Below, in pieces: positions 20,097 to 50,334 of a stretch of 64,000 bases of DNA. Position numbers and translations under genes: made by a program. Under the pieces are notes generated by a model that saw only the letters and a program-made list of their open reading frames with translations, was not told the origin of the DNA and did no database searches. How positions within the stretch are numbered: the stretch's first letter is position 1; the number at the start of each line of letters is the position of its first letter. The DNA comes from an uncultured delta proteobacterium (GTDB taxonomy: Bacteria; Desulfobacterota; Syntrophobacteria; BM002): contig CAVQGX010000030.1 in assembly GCA_963712115.1 (NCBI GenBank), positions 32,001 to 96,000 on the forward strand, in the 5' to 3' direction.

Positions 20097-20288
20097 CCCG
20101 GATATCTCATGAATAACTTGCTGCGACCACGGATATGGCCGTCCCTCCAGGCGTCCTCGGGTGTCGGCCCCTGCGACGTACCGTTCAGGTACGCCTCGGA
20201 ACCAATCCCGCGGTACCGCGGGACGGTTACCAGGTGGCCCGCCCATCTTCGCGCTCTCGCGACAGCAATTCATGAAATATCCGGGTTG
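20094..20288. mobile_element. MITE-like palindromic element copy 1 (short form)
   Basis: TAACCCGGATATCTCATGAAT...ATTCATGAAATATCCGGGTT; left end is the FHA stop codon. Confidence 0.8.
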
Positions 20289-22015: not shown

Positions 22016-22275
22016 CTCCTTCCGCCTTGGCATTAAACTTGGTGAACCACAATAAGTATAGTGTTTTTACTGGCCTTTGTTCAAGCCAAAAGCACAAAGT
22101 TGAAGCTTCCACACCCAGAGGACCTGGCATTGAGTTGGCCTCGGCAGAAGTTTGTGAGGCAGCCACACCGCTTGCTGCAGAAGTAAGTGATGGAGTGACA
22201 GTAATTGCAGAGTTGCAGATTGCAGATTTTAGATTTAAGATTAGTGATTGTGAATATAGATTGAGGAGACAAGCG

Positions 22276-23787
22276 ATGCGAGCTAGTGATTTCCCAGCTG
22301 ATATTCAGCCCCATCTTATTCCTCTTCCTTCAGGTGATCTCGTCTATCGTTGCCTAAAGTGCGAGGAAATCTTTACCATTGAGTCGCTACTCTATACCTG
22401 CCCTGAGTGCAAGAGCATTCTCTTGATTGAAGATCGTCAATGGGAACGGTTGAAAGAGTTCAGCGGATCATTCTGGCGGCGTCTGTTTGACTACCGTAAG
22501 ATGCTCAACCACCCTGCCTTGAAGGGAATTTTCCTTTTCTACGAGATAATTGCCCCAGTGATACCGTTGGAGGACATTATTTACTTGGGTGAGGGTCATA
22601 CCCCGGTAGTTCGGGCGAACGATGGACTGCGAGATTGGGTAGGAGTCGATTTCTACTTCAAAAATGACGGGCAAAACCCGAGCGCTTCTTTTAAAGACAG
22701 AGGCATGGCATGTGCCTTGAGCTATTTGAATTATATTGTCCGCAGTCAAAACTTGACAGAAGTGCTGTCCATATGTGCCTCCACTGGAGATACTTCAGCA
22801 GCCGCAGCTCTCTACTCTGCCTACATGAGCAAAAAGGTTAAATCGGCGGTCCTCTTGCCTCACAAAAAGGTAACGCCCCAACAAATCTCTCAGCCTCTGG
22901 GAAGCGGTGCTCGGGTCTTCGAGATCCCCGGGGTATTTGACGACTGCATGAAGGTAGTAGAGCATCTTGCTGATAATTACCATGTGGCACTGCTCAATTC
23001 AAAGAACGCCTGGCGCATCCAAGGGCAAGAGTCCTACTCCTTTGAAGTAGCTCAGGGCTTTGACTATGACCTGGCAAACAAGGTGGTTATAGTGCCCATC
23101 GGGAATGCTGGTAATATTACCGCGGTTATGGGGGGTTTTCTGAAGCTCCTCGACCTTGGAGTGATAGATACTCTGCCCAAGATTATTGGCGTCCAGTCGG
23201 AGCATGCCGATCCAGTCTATAGGTACTATCGAGAATCCGACCCAAGTAAAAGGATATTTCGTCCTGTGACTGTCAGACCCAGTGTGGCCCAAGCAGCCAT
23301 GATAGGTAATCCCGTTTCCATGCCCAGGGTAATACGTTTGGTTGAAGCTTACGAAAAGGTTCCAGGCAGTCCCGGGGTCTTTGTAGTGCAGGTAGGTGAA
23401 CAGGAGATTATGGACTGCCAACTAATTGCCAACCGAAATGGCCATATCGCTTGTACTCAAGGGGGAGAATGTTTGGCTGGTTTGCTTAGGGCCCGACAAG
23501 AAGGGATTGTATCAGAAGGAGAGGTTGCGGTGCTTGATGCTACCGCTCACGCTCTCAAATTTGCCGGCTTCCAAGAAAACTATTTTGGCGACAAGTTGGA
23601 CGCAGCCTATGAAATTGTGCCGAAAGATGAATTGAGGAATTTCCCCACTCTGATTGAAGCTCCGGGAGTGAAAAGAATGCCCGCACCGGGGAAACCCTTA
23701 CCTGAAAATGAGTTTCAGAATTTCGTGGAGGCAACCGCCAGTGAAATTGCCCGAGAACTTGACCTGAAAGCGAAAGGGTCGGGATAG
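22276..23787 (+). CDS. thrC: Threonine synthase
   Basis: N-terminal CxxC/CPxC, LGEGHTP, NPSASFKDRGM (PLP Lys), CASTGDTSA, VPIGNAGN; GAGGAG RBS. Confidence 0.92.
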   Translation: MRASDFPADIQPHLIPLPSGDLVYRCLKCEEIFTIESLLYTCPECKSILLIEDRQWERLKEFSGSFWRRLFDYRKMLNHPALKGIFLFYEIIAPVIPLEDIIYLGEGHTPVVRANDGLRDWVGVDFYFKNDGQNPSASFKDRGMACALSYLNYIVRSQNLTEVLSICASTGDTSAAAALYSAYMSKKVKSAVLLPHKKVTPQQISQPLGSGARVFEIPGVFDDCMKVVEHLADNYHVALLNSKNAWRIQGQESYSFEVAQGFDYDLANKVVIVPIGNAGNITAVMGGFLKLLDLGVIDTLPKIIGVQSEHADPVYRYYRESDPSKRIFRPVTVRPSVAQAAMIGNPVSMPRVIRLVEAYEKVPGSPGVFVVQVGEQEIMDCQLIANRNGHIACTQGGECLAGLLRARQEGIVSEGEVAVLDATAHALKFAGFQENYFGDKLDAAYEIVPKDELRNFPTLIEAPGVKRMPAPGKPLPENEFQNFVEATASEIARELDLKAKGSG

Positions 23788-24097: not shown

Positions 24098-24388
24098 TCA
24101 CCCCTCGACGCTCTGAGACAAGTTGCCTAGGCTTCGGCAGGTTTTTTCCAGAGTTGCAGATGGATTGAGGTAATATTGCCGCATTTGATTGGCATCGAGT
24201 GCCTCGAATATTATGCGATGGCGGTCAAGTTCCTCCAAAGCGCTGACTAGCGACTCGGGTCTGTCATTCCAAAATGTTCCCGCCGACTCAATAGTAATCG
24301 GCGTACCACTTTCGGCAAGATTGCAGATTAGTATATAGGCCGAAGTGGCTTCCACAGACAAATTCAAACTAAAAATCTTCCGATCCAT
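24098..24388 (-). CDS. Hypothetical protein (possible winged-helix-like)
   Basis: 96-aa ORF with plausible composition; no firm motif. Confidence 0.65.
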   Translation of the reverse strand: MDRKIFSLNLSVEATSAYILICNLAESGTPITIESAGTFWNDRPESLVSALEELDRHRIIFEALDANQMRQYYLNPSATLEKTCRSLGNLSQSVEG

Positions 24389-24464
24389 GACCTTAGATCT
24401 CCTTGTTCTCTAGCGGGTAGCAGGGGCTATAATAATATCTTATGAAGCACAAGGAAAGACTTCG

Positions 24465-24784
24465 AGCCCGGATATTTCATGAATTCACGCCCTGGCGTGA
24501 CTGCGACCACGGATATGGCCGTCCTTCCTGGCGTCCTCGGGTGTCAGCCCCTGCGACGTACCGTTCAGGTACGCCTCGGCTTCGATCTTGGATTTCGGAT
24601 TTCGGATCTCGGGTTTTTGACTACAATTGATGATAATGAACTCAACAGTTCAGGTTTTGCCATTTGTTCTCTGGTTCTCACAAAATTTTCAGCAAATTTT
24701 CAATCCGCATTCCGCAATGGTCGACCCGGTGGCACGCCCATCTTCGTGGTCTCGCGACAGCAATTCATATAATATCCGGACTAG
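24465..24784. mobile_element. MITE-like element copy 2 (long form)
   Basis: AGCCCGGATATTTCATGAATT...AATTCATATAATATCCGGACT with internal ~130-nt extra segment. Confidence 0.8.
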
Positions 24785-25006
24785 ACGATTAAATGTTGAA
24801 CACTCTGGATCTTTCACCGTTTTTTGCATAGGTCAGTCCACCCCAAAAGAGGGTATGTCACTAAAAATGGCGCTAATATGATTACATTTTTGTAGTTGCA
24901 AGTGATTTTGTTATTGAGTATGTTTTTTTTGATTCAAACACCTTCACCTAATACTTTCGCAGGGTTTGTGGAGGACGGTGAAAGATATTTAGGACAGGAT
25001 AAAGCA

Positions 25007-27310
25007 ATGGCAAATGTCTATGATAACGTCCTAGAGCTAATCGGCAACACACCTTTGATTCGGGTAAACCGCCTCAATTCCAATGCAAAGGTGACCATTT
25101 ATGCCAAGCTGGAGTCTCGAAACCCCGGTGGTTCAGTTAAGGATCGCATTGCTCTTCAGATGGTCGAGCAGGCGGAGCTTAGAGGAGAGCTTACGCCGGA
25201 AAAGACGATAATCGAGGCCACCAGTGGAAATACTGGCATTGGTTTGGCCGTGGTGGCCGCAGTGAAAGGATATCGCATTACCCTGGCCATGCCTGAGACT
25301 GCCAGTCAGGAGCGTCAGAAGATTCTCAAGGCACTTGGTGCCGAGATCTTACTTACCCCTGGGACCCTAGGAACGGACGGTGCAATCGAAAAGGTTTATG
25401 AGCTGGCACGCCAGTTTCCAGGTCGCTATTTCATGCCTGACCAGTTCAATAATGAAGACAACTGGAAGGCGCACTATTTCTCAACTGCCAAGGAAATCTG
25501 GGAACAGACTGAGGGTAAAGTTACTCATGTTATAGCAACTCTTGGCACTACCGGCACGGCTATCGGCATAACGAAACGCTTGAAAGAGTACGACCAGGAC
25601 ATCTGCGTTATTGCTGTGGAGCCCTATATGGGACACAAAATTCAAGGGCTCAAGAATATGAAAGAGTCATATGTTCCCGGGATTTTTGACAAAGAAATCT
25701 TGGATGAGATAGTTCATATTGAGGACGCCGAGGCTTTCGAAACAGCCAGGAGACTGGCCCGGGAAGAAGGCCTTTTTGTGGGAATGAGCGGTGGGGCTTC
25801 CATGGCGGCGGCCCTCCGCACTGCAAGCACCTTGGAAGGGGGATACATTGTGGCCATCCTCCCCGATGGTGGTGAACGTTATCTCAGCACGAACCTATTT
25901 ACCACTCTGTCGGAGCCGGATTTTCGCTTTTACAATACCTTCTCGCGTCAAAAAGAAGAATTCAAGCCGATCTCGGAAGGCAAAATCTCTCTTTTTACCA
26001 CCGGTCCAACGGTGGGGGAATCACTCGAGCTAACCGAGAGTCGCCGTTTGGTGGTGGCCGATCTCCTCCGGAGGTATTTGGAATATAAGGGTTTTGAGGT
26101 AAGCCAAGTGGTCAACATAACCGACATGGGAGAAAAAGCCATATTGGATTCTAGTTATGACTTAGATACTGACGCCGAGCGGTACATGGAGATCTGCCGG
26201 CGGGATACAGAAGTCTTGGGTGTACAACCGGCCACTTACTATCCCCGCACAAGCGAACACGTGGATGATATTCTGAACATTAGCAAGGCATTGATGGAAA
26301 AGGGTGTCGCCTACGAAAAACTCCGTTCGGTATATTTTGACATCTCCAAATTCGCTGACTACGGTAAACTATCTCGGGTGGATCTGCAAAAAATAAGGCT
26401 GGGTAAGACCGTTGACCTTGAAGCTTATGAGAAGGAGAACCCCCGTGATTTCACTCTCCTTAGACGGGCTACTCTGGCCGAGCTGAAACGGGGGATCTAT
26501 TTAAAAACCACCTGGGGAAACGTGCTGCCCTCCCTGCATCTCGAGACAGTAGCTCTAGCCACTAAACAATTGGGGGTGACCATAGACATTCATGTAAGCA
26601 GTTTAGACTTTTTATTTCCCCACAACGAAAACGAAATCGCCATCGCCCAAGCAGCTACGGGTAAACCTCTCGCCAACTACTACATTCATTGCGAGCGGGT
26701 GCTTATGGATGGCAAGAAGATGTCAAGGGAAGGTGAAGGTAGGGAGACGGTGCAGCAACTGCTAAATCGGGGCTACAGTGGCAGACAGATACGCTACTGG
26801 TTGTTGGCTACACATTATCGTAAGCCACTGCACTATGAAGAGGACAGATTAGAGGAAGTTGCACGGAGTCTGGAACGGTTGGATGAATTTATCCAAAGGT
26901 TGCACCATGTGGTTACAGGCAAGGCTGCTGAGGAGGTCAATCAGTTAATCTATGAAGTTGAGCAGAATTTTGACGAGGCAATGGGCGACGACCTGAACAT
27001 ATCATCAGCCCTTGCTGCTGTCTTCGGTTTTATCCGCAAACTCAATCCATACATTTCCGAGGGCAGTCTGAGCGAGGGCCAAAAGGAAGCGGCACTTGCG
27101 GTGATGGGACGACTGGATTCTGTACTGAATATTATTCACTGCCCTGAGGTTGATCTTGATGAGAAAACCTGTAGACTTCTGGAAGCCAGAGCTGAGGCCA
27201 GACGGAGTAAGCGGTGGGAAGAGGCTGACCGGATTCGCCAAGAACTTCTGGAGCTTGGTATCAGGGTTGTTGATACTCCGGAGGGCACTCGCTGGAAACG
27301 GGCGGACTAA
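25007..27310 (+). CDS. Fusion: PLP cysteine synthase (CysM/CysK-like) + degenerate cysteinyl-tRNA synthetase-like domain
   Basis: N-half IGNTPL, NPGGSVKDR, TSGNTG, GTTGT, PDGGERYLST; C-half FYNTFSRQKEEFKP, NITD, FPHNENE, KMSR, ADRIRQEL..GI.VVDTPEGTRW. Confidence 0.9.
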   Translation: MANVYDNVLELIGNTPLIRVNRLNSNAKVTIYAKLESRNPGGSVKDRIALQMVEQAELRGELTPEKTIIEATSGNTGIGLAVVAAVKGYRITLAMPETASQERQKILKALGAEILLTPGTLGTDGAIEKVYELARQFPGRYFMPDQFNNEDNWKAHYFSTAKEIWEQTEGKVTHVIATLGTTGTAIGITKRLKEYDQDICVIAVEPYMGHKIQGLKNMKESYVPGIFDKEILDEIVHIEDAEAFETARRLAREEGLFVGMSGGASMAAALRTASTLEGGYIVAILPDGGERYLSTNLFTTLSEPDFRFYNTFSRQKEEFKPISEGKISLFTTGPTVGESLELTESRRLVVADLLRRYLEYKGFEVSQVVNITDMGEKAILDSSYDLDTDAERYMEICRRDTEVLGVQPATYYPRTSEHVDDILNISKALMEKGVAYEKLRSVYFDISKFADYGKLSRVDLQKIRLGKTVDLEAYEKENPRDFTLLRRATLAELKRGIYLKTTWGNVLPSLHLETVALATKQLGVTIDIHVSSLDFLFPHNENEIAIAQAATGKPLANYYIHCERVLMDGKKMSREGEGRETVQQLLNRGYSGRQIRYWLLATHYRKPLHYEEDRLEEVARSLERLDEFIQRLHHVVTGKAAEEVNQLIYEVEQNFDEAMGDDLNISSALAAVFGFIRKLNPYISEGSLSEGQKEAALAVMGRLDSVLNIIHCPEVDLDEKTCRLLEARAEARRSKRWEEADRIRQELLELGIRVVDTPEGTRWKRAD

Positions 27311-27312
27311 TA

Positions 27313-28086
27313 TCATTTCCTTAGTTGGCGAATCTCAACATCCGATCCGTTACCTACCACCACAATACGAAGGGAAATGGCTTTTTGCTTCTGGGGATTG
27401 GCCAATCTGTGAACCTCCACCTGACTTTGATCCAAGTGACCTATCCTTTGCAATTCGCGGAGTAGATGGGAAAAACGTTGCCCTGGCACTTCGACATCGA
27501 TCAAACGAGCCGAACTGGAATTAAGGGGGCGAGTAGGCTCCCTTTCCTGTATCATTGAACCGGAGATAGAACGAAGCATAGATTCCAGCTCGCGATCAGC
27601 CCTAGAGAAATCTTTGACTCTGAGGACCATTACCGGGACAGGAGGTTGGCCCGCCCCACGTCTCGTTGTGAACTTGGCCGTTGGCTGACTAGCAGGTTCG
27701 CCTATAATCAAGTTATTATTTTGGTCTGATACAAGAGACCTGAGGGAAAAGGATGGCAGCAGAACCTGCCAGAGGGTAAGGGAGATGACTAATACTACCG
27801 CTGCACCCACCCCCAGTGGGAGCCACCTTGGGAGATAGGTGAAAGGCCAAATAAGCTTTCGCAGGCGACGTTCCTTCAACCTTGCCATTACTACTGCACT
27901 GAGATGTGCGGGAGGATGCAGATTTGGCAGTCGGCTCAAGATTTCCTTGGTTTTCTGCAGAGAGTTCCATTTGCGATAGCAAGACAAGCATTTCCGCAGA
28001 TGGAACTGCAGTGTTTCGCGCTCCTCCAGAGAAAGCTCGCCGTCCAGATAATCATTGAACTGTGATACGTACTTACGGCACTCCAT
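27313..28086 (-). CDS. Zinc-binding (zf-HC2) membrane anti-sigma factor
   Basis: YLDGEL..HLRKCLSC; one TM helix; directly after ECF sigma. Confidence 0.85.
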   Translation of the reverse strand: MECRKYVSQFNDYLDGELSLEERETLQFHLRKCLSCYRKWNSLQKTKEILSRLPNLHPPAHLSAVVMARLKERRLRKLIWPFTYLPRWLPLGVGAAVVLVISLTLWQVLLPSFSLRSLVSDQNNNLIIGEPASQPTAKFTTRRGAGQPPVPVMVLRVKDFSRADRELESMLRSISGSMIQEREPTRPLNSSSARLIDVEVPGQRFSHLLRELQRIGHLDQSQVEVHRLANPQKQKAISLRIVVVGNGSDVEIRQLRK

Positions 28087-39793: not shown

Positions 39794-39974
39794 CCCGGAT
39801 GTTTCATGAATTGCTTACTACGACCACGGATATGGGCATCCTTCCGTGCGTCCTCGGGTGTTGGCCCCTGCGACGTACCGTTCAGGTACGCCTCGGGACC
39901 AATACCCTGCGGTTGCCCGGTGGCACGCCCATCTTCCTGGTCTCGTGACAGCAATCCATGAAACATCCGGGTTA
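39791..39974. mobile_element. MITE-like element copy 3 (short form)
   Basis: TAACCCGGATGTTTCATG...CATGAAACATCCGGGTTA; left end is the hydrolase stop codon. Confidence 0.82.
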
Positions 39975-49985: not shown

Positions 49986-50334
49986 CCAGGATGTTTCACG
50001 AATCGCTTACTGCGACCACGGATATGACCGCCCTTCCGTGCGTCCTCGGGCGTCGGCCCCTGCGACGTACCACTCAGGTACGCCTCGGCTTCGATCTTGG
50101 ATTTTGGATGTCGGATTTTTGACTACAATTGATGATATCGAGCTTAACAGTTCAGATTTCGGCATTTGTTCTCTGGTTCTCAAGAGCTTTTCAGTAAATT
50201 TTCAATCCGCGTTCCGCAATCCGCATTCCGCAATCGTCGACCCGGTGGCCCGCCCGCCTCGCCTTGCTCGCATGGCGGGCAGGCACGCCCATCTTCGTGG
50301 TCTCGTGACAGCAATTCATGAAACATCCTGGTTA
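49983..50334. mobile_element. MITE-like element copy 4 (long form with nested mini-palindrome)
   Basis: TAACCAGGATGTTTCA...TGAAACATCCTGGTTA; left end is the GT stop codon. Confidence 0.82.

Follow-up and report, generated by a model that had tools for sequence, protein, structure and literature searches.

A gene on the forward strand of the window (the whole 64,000-nucleotide stretch analysed here, from contig CAVQGX010000030.1 of an uncultured bacterium of the class Syntrophobacteria) encodes a cysteine synthase of the CysM/CysK type joined to a cysteinyl-tRNA synthetase (CysRS) whose catalytic signatures are lost. The two domains make up one genuine gene that is conserved and under constraint. 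Judged by alignment, the CysRS-like half retains its fold together with the residues for reading G34 in the GCA anticodon. It is under purifying selection, and the genome carries a separate intact cysS gene. Taken together, these features argue that the CysRS-like half most likely serves as a module that would bind tRNA-Cys without catalysis and gate the attached cysteine synthase or be coupled to it, a reading to which we give about an even chance. In that case, there may be a direct link between cysteine production and cysteine tRNA in the cell.

The open frame around the gene runs from 24896 to 27310 (+). Translation from the ATG at 25007 gives a product of 767 residues. We take this ATG as the real start because five close homologues (loci L010, L011 and L013-L015) open only one codon 5' of the matching methionine. 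Pfam finds PALP at residues 9-287 (3e-74) and tRNA-synt_1e at 319-618 (1.8e-66), followed at the C-terminal end by DALR_2 (654-708) and CysS_C, the CysRS anticodon-binding domain (716-763). With NCBIfam models, the CysM match ends at 298-299 and the cysS model starts at 307. The linker is therefore about 6 residues long, and its EPD(F/I) motif is kept in 10/10 members of the window's class. The CysRS-like half begins at about residue 306 (window 25922). An earlier note on this DNA, made from the sequence alone, had placed this boundary at about 25920, and all the motifs that it quoted are found in the translation (SVKDR, TSGNT, GTTGT, TGPTV, ELTE, PSLHLET, HVSSLDF, FPHNENE, KMSRE and ADRIRQELLELGIRVVDTPEGTRW). 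The gene and its parts are as follows.

25007..27310 (+), whole coding sequence of the CysM-pseudoCysRS fusion, 767 residues plus stop (open reading frame, translation, Pfam and NCBIfam domains, AlphaFold2 model).
25007..25903 (+), CysM/CysK-type sulfhydrylase half dependent on pyridoxal phosphate (PLP), residues 1-299 (cysKM profile, PDB match, Foldseek, motifs).
25904..25921 (+), linker, residues 300-305 (..LSEPD..), leading into the first strand of the CysRS-like half; short and conserved.
25922..26866 (+), degenerate "catalytic" part with Rossmann fold and connective peptide (CP), residues 306-620 (tRNA-synt_1e, 1.8e-66; alignment to 8qhp, 3tqo and 1li5).
26000..26002 (+), T332 in place of Zn ligand C28 (alignment to 1li5_A).
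26027..26038 (+), ELTE (341-344) at the HIGH position, H37-I-G-H40 (alignment to 1li5_A).
26534..26548 (+), LHLET (510-514) at the WHIEC position, with L510 at W205 and T514 at C209 (alignment to 1li5_A).
26717..26731 (+), KMSRE (571-575) at the KMSKS position, K266-M-S-K-S270 (alignment to 1li5_A).
26867..27151 (+), stem-contact and helical-bundle part, residues 621-715 (Pfam DALR_2 at 654-708); the least conserved part.
27152..27307 (+), anticodon-binding domain, residues 716-767 (Pfam CysS_C, 37.3 bits versus a cut-off of 23).

The numbering of E. coli CysRS used here was derived from a residue-by-residue HMMER alignment to 1li5_A. Besides the replacements listed above, H529-V-S-S of the fusion aligns to H224-G-G-G, and H539, N540 and E543 correspond to H234, H235 and E238. 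We take C28, C209, H234 and E238 to be the Zn ligands of CysRS and W205 to serve cysteine selection. In the window protein, two of the four ligands (C28 and C209) and W205 are replaced, and H539 and E543 are in place. The degenerate motifs described in the earlier note could thus all be positioned on the E. coli enzyme, and its term "pseudo-synthetase" suits a protein in which HIGH, the second KMSKS lysine, two Zn ligands and W205 are gone. From the loss of these residues we infer that the CysRS-like half is non-catalytic, being unable to bind zinc and cysteine in the canonical manner or to form cysteinyl-adenylate. Its homology to CysRS (EC 6.1.1.16, class I; E. coli 1li5/1u0b) is nevertheless full-length and comprises the Rossmann fold, the CP, the stem-contact fold, the helical bundle and the anticodon domain. 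The differences are the lost motifs, the attachment to CysM, the placement in a separate clade and the coexistence with a canonical CysRS. The cysS model TIGR00435 matches residues 307-765 with 339.4 bits for a cut-off of 340 (341.2 in a six-frame search of the genome). The closest solved structure is 8qhp_A (8.3e-87), and 1li5/1u0b match at 1.7e-66. In an alignment of 37 canonical CysRS, 112 columns reach a conservation of 90% or more; the window protein agrees with 79 of them, 64/96 in the catalytic part and 15/16 in the C-terminal tRNA-binding part.

The same positions were counted in 163 fusions (112 database proteins, 41 loci and 10 class members; many are close relatives and hence non-independent) and in 40 canonical CysRS. 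Cys at position 28, His at 37, Trp at 205, Cys at 209 and Lys at 269 are each found in 40/40 canonical enzymes. Among the fusions, position 28 is Cys in 67/163 and Thr in 91/163, H37 is kept in 41/163, W205 in 90/163 and C209 in 67/163. At position 269, Arg is the commonest residue (102/163) and Lys is outside the top five. Position 40 is His or Asn in 40/40 canonical CysRS, and 34 of these 40 have HxGN instead of HxGH; in the fusions Asn occurs in 10/163 and His is outside the five commonest residues. Many active-site residues are invariant in the fusion family, for instance NITD, DIH, FPH.EN, R346 and D352. Most members from outside the window's class retain the Zn/cysteine pocket while their ATP motifs decay. 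Within the class the pocket is destroyed (C28T, C209T or C209A), with E238V added in the sister families. The latter, sampled as 10 class members from five other families or genera, are more degenerate than the window protein and have lost H224, E238 and all of KMSKS. There, DIH is changed to DIQ, DIY or DV, FPHHENE to FPHLENV and WHIEC to WHIAA, and KMSKS is gone. They still keep all the CysM motifs, the lid loop GHKIQGLKNMKESYVPGIFD, the EPDF linker and RExAR....W..ADRIR...L...G..V.DTP.G..W. A segment of the CP, residues 462-508 (26390-26530), reads K.R.GKTVDLEAYEK.NPRDFTLL(R/K)RATLAELKRG...W and shows little or no variation among the fusions. It stands in place of the canonical NP.DF.LWK..K.GEP.W and is therefore a signature of the family.

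The anticodon-binding end follows another course. R728, R732, W737, D741, R744 and D756 of the fusion align with R423, R427, W432, D436, R439 and D451 of E. coli CysRS. As described in the accessible part of PMC12684709, G34 of tRNA-Cys forms hydrogen bonds with Arg427 and Asp436 and stacks on Trp432, and Arg423 belongs to a water network. Arg427, Trp432, Asp436 and Arg439 also appear, in the accessible text of PMC13449415, as mutagenesis targets for altering anticodon recognition. The R423 position and the aromatic residue at 432 are kept in 40/40 canonical CysRS and in 163/163 fusions. R427 is found in 32/40 canonical enzymes (the other 8 have Lys) and 162/163 fusions, D436 in 39/40 and 162/163, R439 in 40/40 and 161/163, and D451 in 40/40 and 162/163. 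The persistence of this end, claimed in the earlier note, is therefore borne out, the G34-contact residues of E. coli CysRS being kept in 161-163 of the 163 fusions. By this count, the putative anticodon-reading residues are the best-kept part of the synthetase half.

In the sulfhydrylase half, the PLP-binding Lys45 lies in SVKDR, and the TSGNT loop with its Asn (72-76), the phosphate loop GTTGT (180-184) and MSGG (260-263), whose Ser hydrogen-bonds N1 of PLP, follow. The earlier note had called the first three motifs intact, as they are, and MSGG is likewise intact in the translation. All four are invariant in 62 family members and 10 class members. In CysK and CysM, the TSGNT loop binds the free alpha-carboxylate of the substrate. 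The half scores above the cut-off of the cysKM subfamily (TIGR01136; 386.2 bits versus 344.15) and under both equivalog cut-offs (cysM, 375.1 versus 394.2; cysK, 345.8 versus 350.95). Its best PDB sequence match is CysM 2jc3_A (7.4e-82, 278 bits), and the Foldseek template-modelling (TM) score to CysM 2bhs is 0.92 (target-normalised). Compared with CysM and CysK of E. coli and Salmonella (2bhs/2jc3), it has the same PLP and substrate motifs. It differs by the lid loop at residues 209-228, which is nearly invariant and peculiar to the fusion, and by the 460-residue CysRS-like C-terminal extension. From the motifs, we infer that the CysM half would be catalytically competent, using a sulfur donor to turn an activated serine into cysteine. 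A role as cysteine persulfide synthase (PLP-dependent CARS) was considered and dropped, the KIIK motif being KAIL here and D-D-N/K-T-I in relatives.

Selection was analysed on the aligned fusions, as the earlier note had proposed. The ratio of non-synonymous to synonymous substitution rates (dN/dS) was calculated by the Nei-Gojobori method for the window and 10 loci (11 sequences, 55 pairs); saturated pairs were dropped, leaving 26-42 usable pairs per region. In this close clade, the CysM half has a median dN/dS of 0.059 and the catalytic part of the CysRS-like half one of 0.061, while the helical and anticodon-binding part reaches 0.112. The CysRS half is thus under purifying selection (dN/dS about 0.06). 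In six pairs among four genomes that allowed both genes to be compared, its dN (0.056-0.148) equals that of the canonical CysRS of the same genomes (0.064-0.160). Over larger distances, nine class members of other families are 68-73% identical to the window protein in the CysM half, 41-51% in the Rossmann/CP part, 31-38% in the helical part and 44-60% in the anticodon domain. A full-length open frame is found in 104/116 class matches. The remaining 12 matches are shorter. Several are located where a contig ends, and four of the 12 lie within open frames of 634-778 residues. In one relative (locus L092, at G030:C1:1863500-1867500, the same place as L052, on a 2.95-Mb contig), the fusion is in at least four pieces and three frames. 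This copy is either a pseudogene or a product of indel errors in the assembly.

The AlphaFold2 model of the fusion has a mean predicted local distance difference test score (pLDDT) of 84 and a predicted TM score of 0.73. Low confidence is confined to the CysM lid loop, the linker (pLDDT below 50 at residues 300-302), loops 377-380 and 466-472 of the CysRS-like half, and the loop equivalent to KMSKS. Foldseek gives target-normalised TM scores of 0.89 to CysRS 8qhp_A and 0.77 to the tRNA-bound 1u0b_B. Among the 50 Foldseek matches listed, every target covers one half of the model only. The two halves were also docked as separate chains. The score is 0.37, the best control giving 0.00; contacts agree at 81% or more between runs and the partner pLDDT is at least 82. 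A score of 0.37 is attained by 58 of 80 solved complexes and by 2 of 110 mismatched pairs, and those attaining this mark at 0.60 or under are only seven of the 80 solved complexes together with both passing mismatches.

The genome of the window (G000 in the coordinates given here) has its own cysteine machinery. A stand-alone cysS lies about 109 kb downstream of the fusion on the same contig. It scores 576.2 bits against TIGR00435, and its motifs are intact (CG.T, HVGH, PGWHIEC, HGGG, FPHHENE and KMSKS). The earlier note had left open whether such a gene and a cysE were present in the genome; both are, and the real charging enzyme of the genome is this separate cysS. The cysE genes occur as two cysE-cysK pairs with virtually equal scores (G000:C30:2946-4409 and G000:C65:11198-12661). 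Copies of an interspersed repeat, described below, surround the pair on C65 and mirror those on C30. The doubling may correspond to a duplicated region or to assembly redundancy, given the 6% contamination of the assembly. SepRS (TIGR00470) was not found in this 94.4% complete genome, the best score being 21.1 bits versus a cut-off of 380.65. The genome has one ordinary tRNA-Cys(GCA) with U73. No unusual tRNA-Cys or extra isoacceptor was found in it, and tRNA-Sec was not called by ARAGORN.

The fusion is an old and widespread family rather than a local oddity. It is present in 115/122 genomes of the window's class (match at E <= 1e-100), in 63/67 of the high-quality genomes and in 31/31 genera, and is thus a core gene of this class of sulfate-reducing and syntrophic bacteria. 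The best 120 matches in the protein database are all CysRS-like, and 118 also have PALP; the two others are proteins of about 510 residues on contigs of 1.7-2.7 kb. Eighty loci were kept from species-representative genomes. Forty-four of them have the fusion (41 usable, full-length) and the other 36 are ordinary CysRS matching only residues ~300-767. By record title, the fusion loci belong to Syntrophobacterales, Desulfobacterales, Desulfobulbia, Desulfofervidaceae, Acidobacteriota, Myxococcota, Phycisphaeraceae (Planctomycetota) and others. In a quick maximum-likelihood tree, one branch splits the 41 fusion halves from 40 canonical CysRS (Shimodaira-Hasegawa-like approximate likelihood ratio test, SH-aLRT, 100). 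The canonical CysRS of fusion-bearing genomes group with the canonical enzymes, and the window clade stands on a long stem of 0.58. The fusion family thus appears to have a single origin. This tree does not establish its sister group, since most of the canonical comparators, picked for their similarity to the query, come from Bacillota.

A separate CysRS scoring above the cut-off was found in 32/32 class genomes checked (29 full-length, 3 partial). In a set of 30 fusion-bearing genomes from several phyla, it was found in 25, two of those having it in pieces; some genomes are common to both sets, so the counts are not additive. In one closed genome of the window's family (G002/G051), the canonical cysS is in two pieces about 270 kb apart (C1:4276118-4277278 and 4550729-4551040), one covering model positions 103-465 and the other 1-104. 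A third CysRS-like gene is present in G072, G076, G077, G079, G081, G086, G099, G103, G130, G131, G136, G140, G143 and G145, and also in G013, G018 and G027. It matches cysS model positions 1 to ~400 only, with 260-310 bits, and has no anticodon-binding domain. In four cases it contains in-frame TGA, TAG or TAA codons. This gene may be of the CysRS* type that the accessible text of PMC9437257 describes for relatives.

How could a synthetase half of this kind serve the enzyme to which it is fused? The CysRS-like half, as a module rigidly attached to the cysteine synthase, would dock tRNA-Cys through the anticodon. The acceptor end of the docked tRNA, free or cysteinylated, would then be presented to the fused CysM, and cysteine synthesis would be tuned to the state or the amount of tRNA-Cys. 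The logic would be akin to that of the HisRS-like domain of GCN2 or of HisZ, but inside the biosynthetic enzyme itself. In a more explicit version, the biosynthetic enzyme would be gated directly by the tRNA of its own amino acid, with docking by the GCA anticodon and the acceptor end swung to CysM. Cys-tRNA-Cys acting as a product-like plug, or uncharged tRNA-Cys acting as an activator, would set the rate of synthesis. We put this version forward tentatively and consider it doubtful. In its boldest form, the tRNA-bound residue would itself be the substrate of the PLP enzyme, giving a third tRNA-dependent route to cysteine or a cysteine derivative.

Several observations weigh against a tRNA-Cys-binding module. 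The helical part, expected to touch the anticodon stem, is the least conserved region, with 31-38% identity to the window protein in 9/10 sampled class members (56% in L101, which is of the same family). Residues of the anticodon domain could be conserved for structure. A readout of the charging state would need the acceptor end, yet the active-site cleft is heavily remodelled. The docking of the two halves gives weak backing to their predicted association. No partner gene common across phyla was found by clustering of neighbours at 43 loci and Pfam searches on 20 neighbours, and no tRNA-Cys gene lies near the fusion in 42 loci. Five of the 30 fusion-bearing genomes, all of them incomplete metagenome-assembled genomes, show the fusion without a separate CysRS. 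Finally, some fusions outside the Syntrophobacteria class keep C28, C209, HxGN and KMSRS. Because HxGN is usual in canonical CysRS, the few that have HLGN, KMSRS and four Zn ligands are nearly canonical and could retain some activity. Inactivity may thus not extend to every member of the fusion family.

The strongest competitor has no tRNA in it. The dead half would be an allosteric or structural domain in the manner of HisZ, responding to a small ligand (cysteine, O-acetylserine or a nucleotide) or stabilising or oligomerising the enzyme. As in HisZ-HisG, a paralogue of an aminoacyl-tRNA synthetase is joined to a biosynthetic enzyme of the same amino acid. The invariance of many active-site residues after the loss of catalysis (NITD, DIH, FPH.EN, R346 and D352) would suit a ligand-binding domain, as would the Zn/cysteine pocket retained in most out-of-class members whose ATP motifs are decaying. 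The short, conserved linker points the same way, as does, weakly, the docking of the two halves. Two features argue otherwise. Unlike HisZ, the fusion family keeps the anticodon domain, with its G34-contact residues in 161-163/163 members, while catalytic residues vary freely; moreover, destruction of the Zn/cysteine pocket (C28T, C209T/A, and E238V in sister families) excludes a cysteine sensor of the canonical type in the window's class. We consider this alternative unlikely. A second competitor has the PLP enzyme convert a seryl, O-acetylseryl, phosphoseryl or cysteinyl residue carried by tRNA-Cys. SepCysS and SelA act on tRNA-bound residues, and a PLP beta-replacement enzyme with a tRNA-Cys-recognition module and kept anticodon-binding residues is formally like them. 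However, the genome shows no SepRS, it has the canonical cysE/cysK route and an intact cysS, and the carboxylate-binding TSGNT loop is invariant, which argues for a free amino-acid substrate. We know of no enzyme that loads such a precursor on tRNA-Cys. Chemistry on the tRNA is thus improbable.

The half might instead be a working though unusual CysRS, part of a bifunctional cysteine synthase/ligase that channels new cysteine onto tRNA. The match to the cysS model is right at the cut-off of 340 (339-341 bits), relatives are named cysteine--tRNA ligase by NCBI and JGI, and the out-of-class members with C28, C209, HLGN and KMSRS might be active. The window protein itself has ELTE for HIGH, two threonines at Zn-ligand positions, W205L, VSS for GGG and Arg for the second KMSKS lysine. 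With the intact cysS of the same genome and the separate CysRS of all 32 class genomes checked, this makes a working synthetase very improbable. Public annotations call these proteins either "cysteine--tRNA ligase" or "cysteine synthase", and for the window's class the former label is probably wrong. At the other extreme, the CysRS half could be a neutral relic on a useful CysM. All the catalytic signatures are lost, and the L052/L092 copy is broken by at least three frame changes. Neutral decay had been named in the earlier note as an outcome that would tell against its reading. It is excluded because the purifying selection matches that on the genome's own CysRS, an essential enzyme with equal dN; the frame is full-length and open in 104/116 class matches, the model is confidently folded and the family is conserved across phyla. 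This is the least credible of the explanations. As for the roles that the same note had envisaged, an alternative route of the Sep-tRNA type is unlikely, with SepRS not found and the TSGNT loop invariant. Channelling to the canonical CysRS fits poorly, since the two proteins would presumably engage the same surfaces of the tRNA. Regulation by tRNA, which corresponds to the tRNA-Cys-binding module preferred here, is the most plausible of the three.

In three studies, RNA libraries yielded contigs that overlie the two halves and their junction with 95-99% identity (for example X1, 25277-25948; X2, 25887-26322; X4, 24913-25917 and 26253-27527). They are a weak sign of transcription because DNA can occur in such libraries. 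Runs X5-X14, with small shares only, and bins lacking cover were given no weight. A scan for promoters and terminators gave scores no better than those of shuffled sequences. An Rfam search of the window found only two tRNAs at the gathering score, and nothing at E <= 1 in 24300-25050. A leader RNA at 24381-24888, suggested by a very high depth of RNA contigs, was rejected, since the region is an interspersed repeat with more than 100 genome copies. The repeat, at 24465-24783, resembles a miniature inverted-repeat transposable element (MITE) or a repetitive extragenic palindromic (REP) element and itself has no Rfam match at E <= 1. Its termini pair as an inverted repeat, CCGGATATTTCATGAAT ... 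ATTCATATAATATCCGG. Further copies lie at 20121-20284, 39794-39970 and 50009-50328, and blastn gives more than 100 matches on about 45 contigs of the genome. Copies are mostly ~190 nt long, with two conserved arms 20-30 nt apart. About 10 of them, including 24465-24783, have an additional middle part of ~145 nt. The summed depth of RNA-library contigs reaches ~920 on the repeat, versus ~8 on the fusion gene.

Synteny is confined to the close clade of the window. It comprises a 96-residue open reading frame, a ThrC-like gene, a pair of anti-sigma and extracytoplasmic function (ECF) sigma factors and two more genes, named by eye as histidine phosphatase-like and peptidase U32-like. The 96-residue frame, at 24098-24388 (-), is matched by neither Pfam nor NCBIfam. 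Its position upstream of the fusion is kept in 8 close loci, so that it is probably a genuine small gene. The ThrC-like gene, at 22027-23787 (+), encodes a PLP enzyme resembling threonine synthase (thrC, 173.6 bits versus a cut-off of 167.1, matched from residue 171); in 6 close loci it precedes the fusion. Its product has a long N-terminal extension with a CxxC...CxxC stretch resembling a zinc ribbon, and the listed TTG start is probably too far upstream. At a Phycisphaeraceae locus, a tRNA_edit gene of the YbaK/ProX type directly follows the fusion (L040:10461-10922, +; 1.5e-24). This is a single case. The YbaK/ProX-type editing family is known for clearing Cys-tRNA-Pro, according to the accessible text of PMC3973320.

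There are precedents for dead synthetase paralogues, with HisZ acting as a regulator and the HisRS-like domain of GCN2 as a tRNA sensor. HisZ forms a subunit of its own without an anticodon-binding domain, and binding of the end product gives allostery. Like the fusion half, this HisRS paralogue of the short-form ATP-phosphoribosyltransferase is an inactive synthetase relative tied to an enzyme of the same amino acid, the real synthetase being separate. The fusion half differs in being covalently attached, in keeping the anticodon domain and in having its canonical cysteine/Zn pocket destroyed. The accessible part of PMC9734150 describes HisZ as a regulatory protein that mediates histidine inhibition of ATP-phosphoribosyltransferase. 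In the second precedent, too, a degenerate domain of synthetase type is joined to an effector enzyme. In GCN2, a eukaryotic eIF2alpha kinase, the HisRS-like domain senses many uncharged tRNAs and does no charging. In contrast, the fusion is bacterial, its effector is a biosynthetic enzyme, and the preserved residues would point to a single anticodon (GCA).

Among CysRS relatives, the accessible text of a 2022 review of synthetase duplications names only CysRS* and MshC as paralogues (PMC9437257). According to the same text, the CysRS* found in Desulfobacterales is a synthetase that is active, coupled to selC*/selB* and devoid of an anticodon-binding domain (PMC9437257). The window protein shows the reverse arrangement, having kept the anticodon domain on a dead core. 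MshC, the mycothiol ligase, is of the same superfamily but keeps the adenylation chemistry and works without tRNA; membership of the fusion in the MshC family was rejected (142.5 bits versus an equivalog cut-off of 485.1). Another link between a cysteine synthase and tRNA is seen with CysK, the activating partner of the tRNase toxin CdiA-CT of E. coli 536, the complex acting on tRNA. That complex is non-covalent, is formed through the site used for CysE-tail mimicry and has no homology to the CysRS-like half. In the searchable literature, which excludes subscription journals and supplementary files, we found no description of a cysteine synthase-CysRS fusion, of a dead-synthetase regulator derived from CysRS, or of any such regulator in one polypeptide with the enzyme producing its amino acid.

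If binding of tRNA-Cys is confirmed, the fusion would offer a directly testable bacterial case in which amino-acid supply is controlled at the level of tRNA. It would also show, in a natural case, what evolution retains of a synthetase from which only tRNA recognition is required.

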